A DNA stretch of 64,000 bases from Escherichia coli (lineage in GTDB: Bacteria; Pseudomonadota; Gammaproteobacteria; Enterobacterales; Enterobacteriaceae): NCBI RefSeq assembly GCF_003334335.1, contig NZ_QOWQ01000011.1; one strand, written 5' to 3'. Below, in pieces: positions 6,213 through 46,156 of this stretch. The position numbers and the translations under genes were made by a program. The notes beneath the pieces are model-generated. The model searched no databases. It was not told the DNA's origin and saw only the letters and a list, made by a program, of their open reading frames with translations. Numbering within the stretch: position 1 is the stretch's first letter; every line of letters starts with the position of its first letter.

Positions 6213-6218
6213 AATCGA

Positions 6219-6258
6219 CTTGTAAACCAAATTGAAAAGATTTAGGTTTACAAGTCTA
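6219..6258. promoter_or_regulatory. bioO: bio operator (BirA binding site) in the divergent bioA / bioBFCD promoter region
   Basis: Imperfect palindrome TTGTAAACCAAATTGAAAAGATTTAGGTTTACAAG between the divergent bioA and bioB starts. Confidence 0.8.
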
Positions 6259-8490: not shown

Positions 8491-9232
8491 TAAACAAGCC
8501 ATTGCAGCGGCATTTGGTCGGGCAGCCGCACACTATGAGCAACATGCAGATCTACAGCGCCAGAGTGCTGACGCCTTACTGGCAATGCTTCCACAGCGTA
8601 AATACACCCACGTACTGGACGCGGGTTGTGGACCTGGCTGGATGAGCCGCCACTGGCGGGAACGTCACGCGCAGGTGACGGCCTTAGATCTCTCGCCGCC
8701 AATGCTTGTTCAGGCACGCCAGAAGGATGCCGCAGACCATTATCTGGCGGGAGATATCGAATCCCTGCCGTTAGCGACTGCGACGTTCGATCTTGCATGG
8801 AGCAATCTCGCAGTGCAGTGGTGCGGTAATTTATCCACGGCACTCCGCGAGCTGTATCGGGTGGTGCGCCCCAAAGGCGTGGTCGCGTTTACCACGCTGG
8901 TGCAGGGATCGTTACCCGAACTGCATCAGGCGTGGCAGGCGGTGGACGAGCGTCCGCATGCTAATCGCTTTTTACCGCCAGATGAAATCGAACAGTCGCT
9001 GAACGGCGTGCATTATCAACATCATATTCAGCCCATCACGCTGTGGTTTGATGATGCGCTCAGTGCCATGCGTTCGCTGAAAGGCATCGGTGCCACGCAT
9101 CTTCATGAAGGGCGCGACCCGCGAATATTAACGCGTTCGCAGTTGCAGCGATTGCAACTGGCCTGGCCGCAACAGCAGGGGCGATATCCTCTGACGTATC
9201 ATCTTTTTTTGGGAGTGATTGCTCGTGAGTAA
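8477..9232 (+). CDS. bioC: Malonyl-ACP O-methyltransferase
   Basis: Start set at [17 protein letters not shown] (ATG 8477), overlapping the bioF 3' end. SAM methyltransferase motif DAGCGPG. Confidence 0.92.
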
Positions 9233-9902
9233 ACGTTATTTTGTCACCGGAACGGATACCGAAGTGGGGAAAACTGTCGCCAGTTGTGCACTTTTACAAG
9301 CCGCAAAGGCAGCAGGCTACCGGACGGCAGGTTATAAACCGGTCGCCTCTGGCAGCGAAAAGACCCCGGAAGGTTTACGCAATAGCGACGCGCTGGCGTT
9401 ACAGCGCAACAGCAGCCTGCAGCTGGATTACGCAACAGTAAATCCTTACACCTTCGCAGAACCCACTTCGCCGCACATCATCAGCGCGCAAGAGGGCAGA
9501 CCGATAGAATCATTGGTAATGAGCGCCGGATTACGCGCGCTTGAACAACAGGCTGACTGGGTGTTAGTGGAAGGTGCTGGCGGCTGGTTTACGCCGCTTT
9601 CTGACACTTTCACTTTTGCAGATTGGGTAACACAGGAACAACTGCCGGTGATACTGGTAGTTGGTGTGAAACTCGGCTGTATTAATCACGCGATGTTGAC
9701 TGCACAGGTAATACAACACGCCGGACTGACTCTGGCGGGTTGGGTGGCGAACGATGTTACGCCTCCGGGAAAACGTCACGCTGAATATATGACCACGCTC
9801 ACCCGCATGATTCCCGCGCCGCTGCTGGGAGAGATCCCCTGGCTTGCAGAAAATCCAGAAAATGCGGCAACCGGAAAGTACATAAACCTTGCCTTGTTGT
9901 AG
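9225..9902 (+). CDS. bioD: Dethiobiotin synthetase
   Basis: GTG start giving [17 protein letters not shown] (P-loop), overlapping the bioC 3' end. Confidence 0.9.
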
Positions 9903-9913
9903 CCATTCTGTAT

Positions 9914-9965
9914 TTGGTTAAATTGCGAGCGAGATCGCGTCTTCGATTGACTGCAATTTAACCAA
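9914..9965. terminator. Candidate bio operon terminator / long hairpin
   Basis: Perfect 13-bp inverted repeat TTGGTTAAATTGC ... GCAATTTAACCAA with a 26-nt spacer, starting 12 bp after the bioD stop. Confidence 0.35.
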
Positions 9966-10062
9966 TTAAATTCTAAAATAATCACGAAAAAAATTTTACT
10001 TCCGCCTCATGCGGCGAATGTGGGAATTGCCCAGGCGGCGGGGGATAGGGGCTGGAGACAGT

Positions 10063-10085
10063 TATCCACTATTCCTGTGGATAAC
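10063..10085. promoter_or_regulatory. Inverted pair of DnaA boxes upstream of uvrB
   Basis: TTATCCACT ... TGTGGATAA; the second is a perfect match to the DnaA box consensus TTATCCACA on the opposite strand. Confidence 0.55.
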
Positions 10086-10386
10086 CATGTGTATTAGAGT
10101 TAGAAAACACGAGGCAAGCGAGAGAATACGCGGCTTGCACGCGAATTGGCGTTAAAGACGGCTCAAAGAAATATCTTTTATTTTTTAACTGGTTAGATAA
10201 ATGCAATGGCAGTCACTGAACAGGCATCTCTTGCCATAAAACTGTCATCACTCATCTTGACAAATGTTAAAAAAGCCGTTGCTTTGGGGATAACCCGGTA
10301 AGGCCGGAGTTTTATCTCGCCACAGAGTAAATTTTGCTCATGATTGACAGCGGAGTTTACGCTGTATCAGAAATATTATGGTGATG

Positions 10387-10406
10387 AACTGTTTTTTTAT
10401 CCAGTA
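10387..10406 (+). promoter_or_regulatory. LexA (SOS) box of uvrB
   Basis: AACTGTTTTTTTATCCAGTA, of the form CTGT-N8-CCAG, about 75 bp upstream of the uvrB start. Confidence 0.8.
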
Positions 10407-10480
10407 TAATTTGTTGGCATAATTAAGTACGACGAGTAAAATTACATACCTGCCCGCCCAACTCCTTCAGGTAGCGACTC

Positions 10481-12502
<2,022 letters not shown>

Positions 12503-46126: not shown

Positions 46127-46156
46127 TTCTGCATGGTTATGCATAACCATGCAGAA
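46127..46156. terminator. Perfect 30-bp palindrome directly downstream of rhtA (candidate terminator or binding site)
   Basis: TTCTGCATGGTTATGCATAACCATGCAGAA is its own reverse complement. Confidence 0.4.

Follow-up and report, generated by a model that had tools for sequence, protein, structure and literature searches.

The window analysed here is a stretch of 64,000 nucleotides of Escherichia coli DNA, of which positions 9882-10490 are the exact MG1655 sequence, and window positions are converted to NC_000913.3 coordinates by adding 803045. The biotin operon bioBFCD ends with bioD, whose stop codon TAG occupies 9900-9902, and the bioD-uvrB intergenic region is 578 bp long in E. coli. A perfect 13-bp inverted repeat begins 12 nt past this stop (812959-813010 in K-12 MG1655), its arms TTGGTTAAATTGC (9914-9926) and GCAATTTAACCAA (9953-9965) being separated by a spacer of 26 nt. 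The earlier note had placed the repeat at exactly these positions and had described it as AT-rich; both statements hold, as only 3 of the 13 stem pairs are G-C. Pairing can be extended to 16 bp with one T.T mismatch (9911-9926 / 9953-9968). The first DnaA box of DARS1 is located 96 bp downstream of the repeat end. On the uvrB side, a LexA box at ~10389-10404 is followed by the P1/P2 promoters and by the uvrB ATG at 10481 (PMC6015884, PMC11317965). The features of the locus are listed below in window coordinates.

9225..9902, + strand: bioD, last gene of the bioBFCD operon (RefSeq annotation of MG1655, 812270-812947, identical sequence)
9911..9968, + strand: predicted RNA stem-loop in the bioBFCD 3′ UTR, with a 13-bp stem extendable to 16 bp (from folding)
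9914..9926, + strand: left arm TTGGTTAAATTGC (from the repeat search; largely ancestral by homology)
9924..9939, no strand assigned: decayed palindrome copy TGCGAGCGAGATCGCG (TGCGA-N6-TCGCG), from comparison with the GATC-containing TGTGA-N6-TC(N)CA of other genera
9927..9952, + strand: 26-nt spacer, the apical loop; 5′ half conserved within Escherichia, 3′ half variable
9953..9965, + strand: right arm GCAATTTAACCAA, Escherichia-specific by our own reading of the alignments
9966..10000, + strand: AT-rich tail TTAAATTCTAAAATAATCACGAAAAAAATTTT with no canonical U tract (from the sequence and cross-genus alignment)
10061..10098, no strand assigned: DARS1 core DnaA boxes GTTATCCAC...GTGGATAAC...TGTGTATTA, overlapping the uvrBp3 promoter (from the sequence; PMC6015884, PMC11317965)

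The tail at 9966-10000 has its homologue in an A/T-rich block that many genera share. A minus-strand open reading frame at 9776-9985 (69 aa) was rejected, as it has no support and overlaps the hypervariable flank.

Chance occurrence was estimated from 100 first-order Markov simulations of the 64-kb window, with spacers of 3-60 nt allowed. Perfect 13-bp inverted repeats appear in the simulated windows at a mean of 0.09 per 64 kb, at least one being present in 7% of them, and the real window contains two, including the one at bioD. Because a few such repeats are expected genome-wide by chance, the count alone is not decisive. The other repeat of the window (46127-46156, TTCTGCATGGTTA) has a loop of 4 nt.

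The bioD repeat was found in 5425 of 5426 complete E. coli genomes, as a single copy in each, and a 63-nt segment is the same as in K-12 in at least 3925 E. coli genomes. When the bioD-uvrB segment was searched, 5428 matches were obtained, two of them on plasmid-typed records, with one of the 5426 genomes giving no match. Paralogues were not found in the 5426 genomes by BLAST with 11-base words at E ≤ 1, and a search inside the window returned only chance-level matches with 2 mismatches. A REP, ERIC or MITE family is thereby ruled out, the repeat occupying one place per genome in 5425 genomes and having no paralogues. For comparison, 80 BioD loci were sampled with one genome per species. All six other Escherichia-lineage loci (L007-L012, including E. 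albertii and E. whittamii) carry the repeat, and it is absent from every non-Escherichia genus among the fetched BioD loci. The inverted repeat is real: it exceeds what chance would give in the window, occurs once per genome and is confined to the genus Escherichia.

RNA folding, which the earlier note had proposed as a check, predicts a stable stem-loop on the + strand. The 58-nt RNA has a folding energy of -20.8 kcal/mol (z = -5.06), equalled by none of 200 shuffles, and the hairpin is also kept when folded in a 131-nt context. Predicted stabilities elsewhere are -20.6 kcal/mol in E. albertii, -23.7 kcal/mol in strain E69 and -18.3 kcal/mol in E. whittamii, while the apical structure is poorly conserved among Escherichia sequences. 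An Rfam search of 9500-10600 at E ≤ 10 returned chance matches only, such as a microRNA family scoring 19.8 bits against a threshold of 76.

That the repeat is not a typical intrinsic terminator, as had been suggested from its composition, is borne out by several features. The stem length of 13 bp fits the range of a G+C-rich terminator stem (~5-14 bp), but the 3 G-C pairs do not make it G+C-rich. The 26-nt spacer takes the place of a short loop of 3-8 nt, and the tail UUAAAUUC, with 4 U in 8 positions, that of a U tract. A consensus promoter and terminator scan returned nothing at the repeat. In strain E69 the tail is CCAAAUGC and is not conserved. On the other hand, a stable sense-strand stem-loop placed 12 nt after the stop, just past the last ORF, is what is looked for in a protective hairpin.

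Published maps of transcript ends were consulted at the locus. The curated Term-seq table of Adams et al. 2021, which includes minimal medium, has no 3′ end at 807397-817046. Because uvrB's own 3′ end is missing from the table too, the sensitivity of this data set at the bioD-uvrB locus is low. The Adams supplementary tables hold no coordinate beginning with 8129, 8130 or 8131, and hence no Rho-termination region at the repeat, and the TRS tables list no 3′ end at the repeat either. A search for a rut-like stretch downstream revealed no clear C-rich, G-poor run, the largest C-minus-G excess per 78-nt window being 10. In SMRT-Cappable-seq tables, which give starts only, the bioBFCD unit (start 809301) excludes uvrB (start 813495) (PMC6131387 supplement). 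With bioBFCD called without uvrB, most full-length transcripts would end within the bioD-uvrB intergenic region. Some read-through is suggested by a preprint that assigns bioBFCD and uvrB to a single transcription-unit cluster. No relevant paper came up in full-text searches for a bioBFCD terminator or for either arm sequence.

Two other terminator-like hairpins are present on the + strand of the intergenic region. One, at 10061-10085, is made by the inverted DnaA boxes of DARS1 and has a 9-bp stem with the tail CATGTGTATT; the other, at 10295-10307, consists of CCGGTAAGGCCGG and then AGTTTTATCT. Transcripts from bio or uvrBp3 could end at either of them.

Unrelated stem-loops, mostly without U tracts, were also seen soon after the bioD stop in Salmonella, Serratia, Buttiauxella, Intestinirhabdus and Pantoea, which are lineages without a gene overlapping the bioD end. 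Their occurrence is consistent with a 3′ hairpin being in general use at the end of the bio operon across lineages. In Pantoea-type loci (L072 3170-3245, L078 and L077), the stem-loop is a REP-like palindrome directly after the bioD stop, and that of L072 has arms of ~29 bp and -60 kcal/mol.

Since the repeat starts only 12 nt past the bioD stop, it would be transcribed with the operon, and its transcript is expected to fold into an AU-rich stem of 13-16 bp. With no proper U tract, such a hairpin would be a weak stop for RNA polymerase. Its main effect would be to block 3′-to-5′ exonucleases, giving a stable 3′ end to transcripts that terminate downstream, before uvrB. It could also help to shield DARS1/uvrBp3, 96 bp downstream, from bio read-through. 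We tentatively favor this reading, in which the repeat is a bioBFCD 3′-UTR hairpin acting as a weak terminator, an exonuclease block or both, and possibly insulating DARS1/uvrBp3 from the bio operon.

A quite possible alternative is that the hairpin is a neutral by-product, namely a quasi-palindrome in leftover regulatory DNA that was perfected by a template-switch-like mutation and has not yet decayed in a young genus. How the locus evolved bears on this directly. A bioD-uvrB spacer of ~1400 bp is seen in Enterobacter, Klebsiella, Kosakonia, the Citrobacter freundii group and most others, where it holds a convergent orphan gene for an ABC-transporter ATPase. It is UrtE/LivF-like, scoring below the NCBIfam family cut-off, and its 3′ end overlaps a longer, C-terminally extended bioD.

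3165-3887 in L075 and 3165-3887 in L027 (examples among L013-L086), - strand: ABC-ATPase gene, between bioD and uvrB

Escherichia, the C. koseri/amalonaticus/sedlakii group, Intestinirhabdus and Salmonella have no such gene, and in Citrobacter sp. R56 (L020) it is partly deleted. Apparently several independent losses have occurred. A search for a coding remnant of the lost gene in the E. coli intergenic region gave no significant tblastn or local-alignment signal. Confinement of the repeat to a single genus, in which the ABC-ATPase gene is missing, favors a neutral by-product.

Homology of E. coli to other genera starts at ~10021-10049 and continues via DARS1 to uvrB. By more sensitive alignment, 9915-9942 (TGGTTAAATTGCGAGCGAGATCGCGTCT), which takes in the greater part of the left arm together with the 5′ spacer, is also ancestral, its counterpart being TGGTGAAAATGCGAGCAAGATCTCGTCT. 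In C. koseri and C. amalonaticus this counterpart directly follows bioD; in C. portucalensis and Citrobacter sp. R56 it lies between the ABC gene and uvrB. From these placements around bioD and the ABC gene, it follows that the repeat sits at a gene-loss junction.

Counterparts of the left arm are TGGTGAAAATGC in Citrobacter and TTGGTTAAAATGT in Leclercia. The Citrobacter sequence aligned to the right arm, GCTGTTAGCTGAT, is complementary to the Citrobacter left arm at 6 of 13 positions, by our own reading of the alignment. By the same reading, E. coli and Citrobacter differ at 9 of the 15 positions aligned over the right arm, against 2-4 in the adjoining 23-28 nt of left arm and 5′ spacer. In the Escherichia ancestor, we infer, the bases of the right arm were replaced at constant length so as to complement the older left arm at the site of the lost convergent gene. 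The simplest mechanism is probably one multi-base event such as a template switch. The concentration of differences in the right arm, suggesting a single event, is again in line with the neutral alternative. Whatever its use, the repeat makes a clear case of a perfect hairpin arising where a gene was lost.

Selection on the hairpin was assessed from variation among 11 Escherichia sequences. The arms vary at 7 of 26 columns (27%), the 5′ flank (9903-9913) at all 11 columns, and the spacer at 5 of 13 columns in its 5′ half and 10 of 13 in its 3′ half, compared with 33% of columns in the whole intergenic region and 11% in the DARS1 core. The arms are locally conserved, yet not beyond the intergenic average. 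That they vary at about the average intergenic rate suits neutrality, but they stand as conserved islands between highly variable neighbours, which does not.

Pairing on the + strand is kept in 97.9% of cells. Ten cells show something other than the most frequent pair: 7 hold G.U or U.G wobbles, equivalent to C.A or A.C mismatches if read on the minus strand, and one is a compensated pair. Pair-breaking changes occur in one sequence each, as G.A in E. whittamii, U.U in SCPM-O-B-8794 and A.C in MOD1-EC7003. Covariation is not significant, the observed values being reached by 220 of 500 shuffles. A rough count of first-step changes, 3-5 pair-preserving versus 3 disruptive where about one-third would be expected to preserve pairing, is not significant either. 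The pattern of substitutions is thus compatible with what a + strand RNA stem would produce, without being statistically significant. The lack of significant covariation and the mismatches in three lineages are points for the neutral explanation, although the pair-breaking changes are all confined to single sequences.

In 10 E. coli sequences, arm polymorphism is restricted to the two partners of the innermost pair. K-12-type sequences have C-G here; U.G is found in at least 375 genomes, Nissle 1917 and ATCC 11775 among them, and U-A in 4 genomes. The stem-adjoining positions 9911-9913 are hypervariable, and the ST131-type allele, with A at 9913, has a 16-bp stem without interruption. That polymorphism in the arms amounts only to wobble followed by compensation at one pair, right beside hypervariable positions, is difficult for a neutral account. 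So is the retention of predicted stability across the Escherichia-lineage loci despite intergenic regions only ~84-86% identical to K-12 (94% in MOD1-EC7003). Moreover, whether selected or not, a 3′-UTR stem of -21 kcal/mol would have some physical effect once transcribed. For the neutral side, the Adams and TRS tables contain no 3′ end here, and literature on the sequence was not found.

The earlier note had offered a protein-binding site as another possibility, and this did not find support. Here the repeat, by its inverted half-sites or by the central TGCGA-N6-TCGCG, would be bound by a regulator or nucleoid protein, which would tune DARS1/uvrBp3 or act on the bio operon from the 3′ side. 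We consider such a site unlikely. The arms are AT-rich and conserved in Escherichia, as a binding site might be, but their centers are 39 bp apart, which is no geometry for a dimer operator. None of 12 consensus motifs for E. coli regulators matches the arms; IHF, Fis, ArcA, FNR, DnaA, LexA, Lrp, NagC, Nac and the BirA half-site all gave no match. The only two matches at 9895-9985 fall outside the arms: a CRP-like one in the spacer, with 3 mismatches, and a loose T-N11-A at 9948-9960. Both occur at or below the rate expected from the whole window. A DnaA box with one mismatch or fewer was not found at 9895-9985. Nor are the arms conserved as an operator would be in related genera: the arm pair is absent outside Escherichia, unlike DARS1 and the uvrB promoters, which align.

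The repeat was also tried as a second BirA operator and rejected, as the half-site of bioO (6217-6256) differs and is in opposite orientation, and no half-site match was obtained at 2 mismatches or fewer. It was likewise rejected as a part of DARS1, whose boxes are at 10061-10098; the repeat lies inside only a broadly defined 'DARS1 region'. DARS1 requires DnaA boxes I-III and a 42-bp flank after the last box, on the side away from the repeat (PMC4585315). A protein site is further disfavored by the reports that DARS1 works without a protein factor and that its required flank lies beyond the DnaA boxes (PMC4585315).

Other genera have the spacer palindrome in a less degraded form, TGTGA-N6-TC(N)CA, which appears to resemble the CRP consensus. 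This form precedes DARS1 box I (GTTATCCAC), always by 138-139 nt and over divergent intervening sequence, in Enterobacter, Kosakonia, Phytobacter, Leclercia, Salmonella, Citrobacter and Buttiauxella (e.g. L023, L027, L032, L036, L041 and L058). The degraded Escherichia copy is at the same distance, 138 bp upstream of DARS1. Such fixed spacing of a CRP-like palindrome across genera speaks for a protein site. So does the retention of DNA from the palindrome onward in every lineage without a full gene between bioD and uvrB, namely Escherichia, the C. koseri group, Intestinirhabdus, Salmonella and Citrobacter sp. R56. In Escherichia, however, the CRP-like core is degraded, with 3 mismatches, compared with 2 or fewer in 31 of 58 loci where DARS1 is far from bioD, nearly all of them carriers of the ABC gene. 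Further blocks shared across genera are seen upstream of the DARS1 core at 9966-10045 and in the aligned parts of L013-L086, outside the minimal DARS1 of the literature: CAAAAA-N-AGCGATAA-A/T-tract-TTTTTT, GGGAATTTGCC(A/G)GGCGGC and ATACGGGCTGGAGGCA.

A role on the minus strand, for instance as a terminator for antisense transcripts running into bioD from the old promoter region of the ABC gene, is very improbable: the minus-strand RNA folds well (-21.0 kcal/mol, z = -3.5) and in other genera the region is upstream of a minus-strand gene, but there is neither a nearby promoter-like site nor a U tract after the stem on that strand, and the 7 wobble cells turn into C.A or A.C mismatches.

Because the substitutions are compatible with a + strand stem and a protein site is unsupported, a non-canonical RNA 3′-end hairpin is the better, if unproven, reading of the repeat. 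Most likely the element is not a protein site but an ordinary hairpin of this kind, located at the biotin operon's 3′ end, and current understanding is little changed by it. If the reading is true, the hairpin would be a so far unmapped 3′ boundary of the bioBFCD operon and would mark the separation of bio transcription from DARS1 and the uvrB promoters. A bolder version, which we find improbable, is that a single step at the deletion scar gave rise to the hairpin, which has been kept for separating two systems that the deletion made neighbours, bio transcription and DARS1/uvrBp3. Bio transcripts would then be stopped or trimmed before reaching DARS1 and uvrBp3, so that transcription through DARS1, and with it DnaA reactivation, would be insulated from biotin status. 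In a reading related to this bolder one, the loop palindrome, with its fixed distance of 138-139 nt from DARS1 in many genera, may be an unrecognised upstream control element of DARS1/uvrBp3.

The homology arms of published DARS1::cat deletion primers end at window positions 9913 and ~10358 (9879-9913 and ~10358-10396; PMC4585315). As the left one ends at 9913, the allele removes the hairpin and the upstream conserved region along with the DARS1 core. The DARS1::cat allele thus also alters the 3′ end of the bio operon.

Among known systems, the repeat is like an intrinsic terminator in being a sense stem-loop that directly follows an operon's last gene and has some U residues past its stem, and unlike one in its AU-rich stem, its 26-nt loop instead of 3-8 nt and its tail UUAAAUUC in place of a U tract. 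The REP/BIME, ERIC and MITE families resemble it as intergenic palindromes after a convergently or terminally placed gene, and a REP-like one occupies the same position in Pantoea, but the bioD repeat occurs once per E. coli genome, without paralogues.

Hairpins are reportedly generated by template-switch or quasi-palindrome mutation, as in the model of Ripley and the genome-wide surveys of Loytynoja and Goldman. The bioD repeat is similar in that one arm was seemingly overwritten in one burst with the length unchanged, the 138-nt spacing to DARS1 being kept; it differs in that the event at bioD would be read from outgroup comparison only.

Dar and Sorek 2018 reportedly described stem-loops that protect the 3′ ends of Rho-dependent or processed mRNAs. 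Like such stem-loops, the repeat forms a predicted stable hairpin without a U tract near the last stop, which could halt 3′-to-5′ exonucleases once transcription has terminated farther on. Unlike them, it is followed by RNA that is not clearly C-rich and G-poor, and its AU-rich stem would be a weaker exonuclease barrier than the typical examples.
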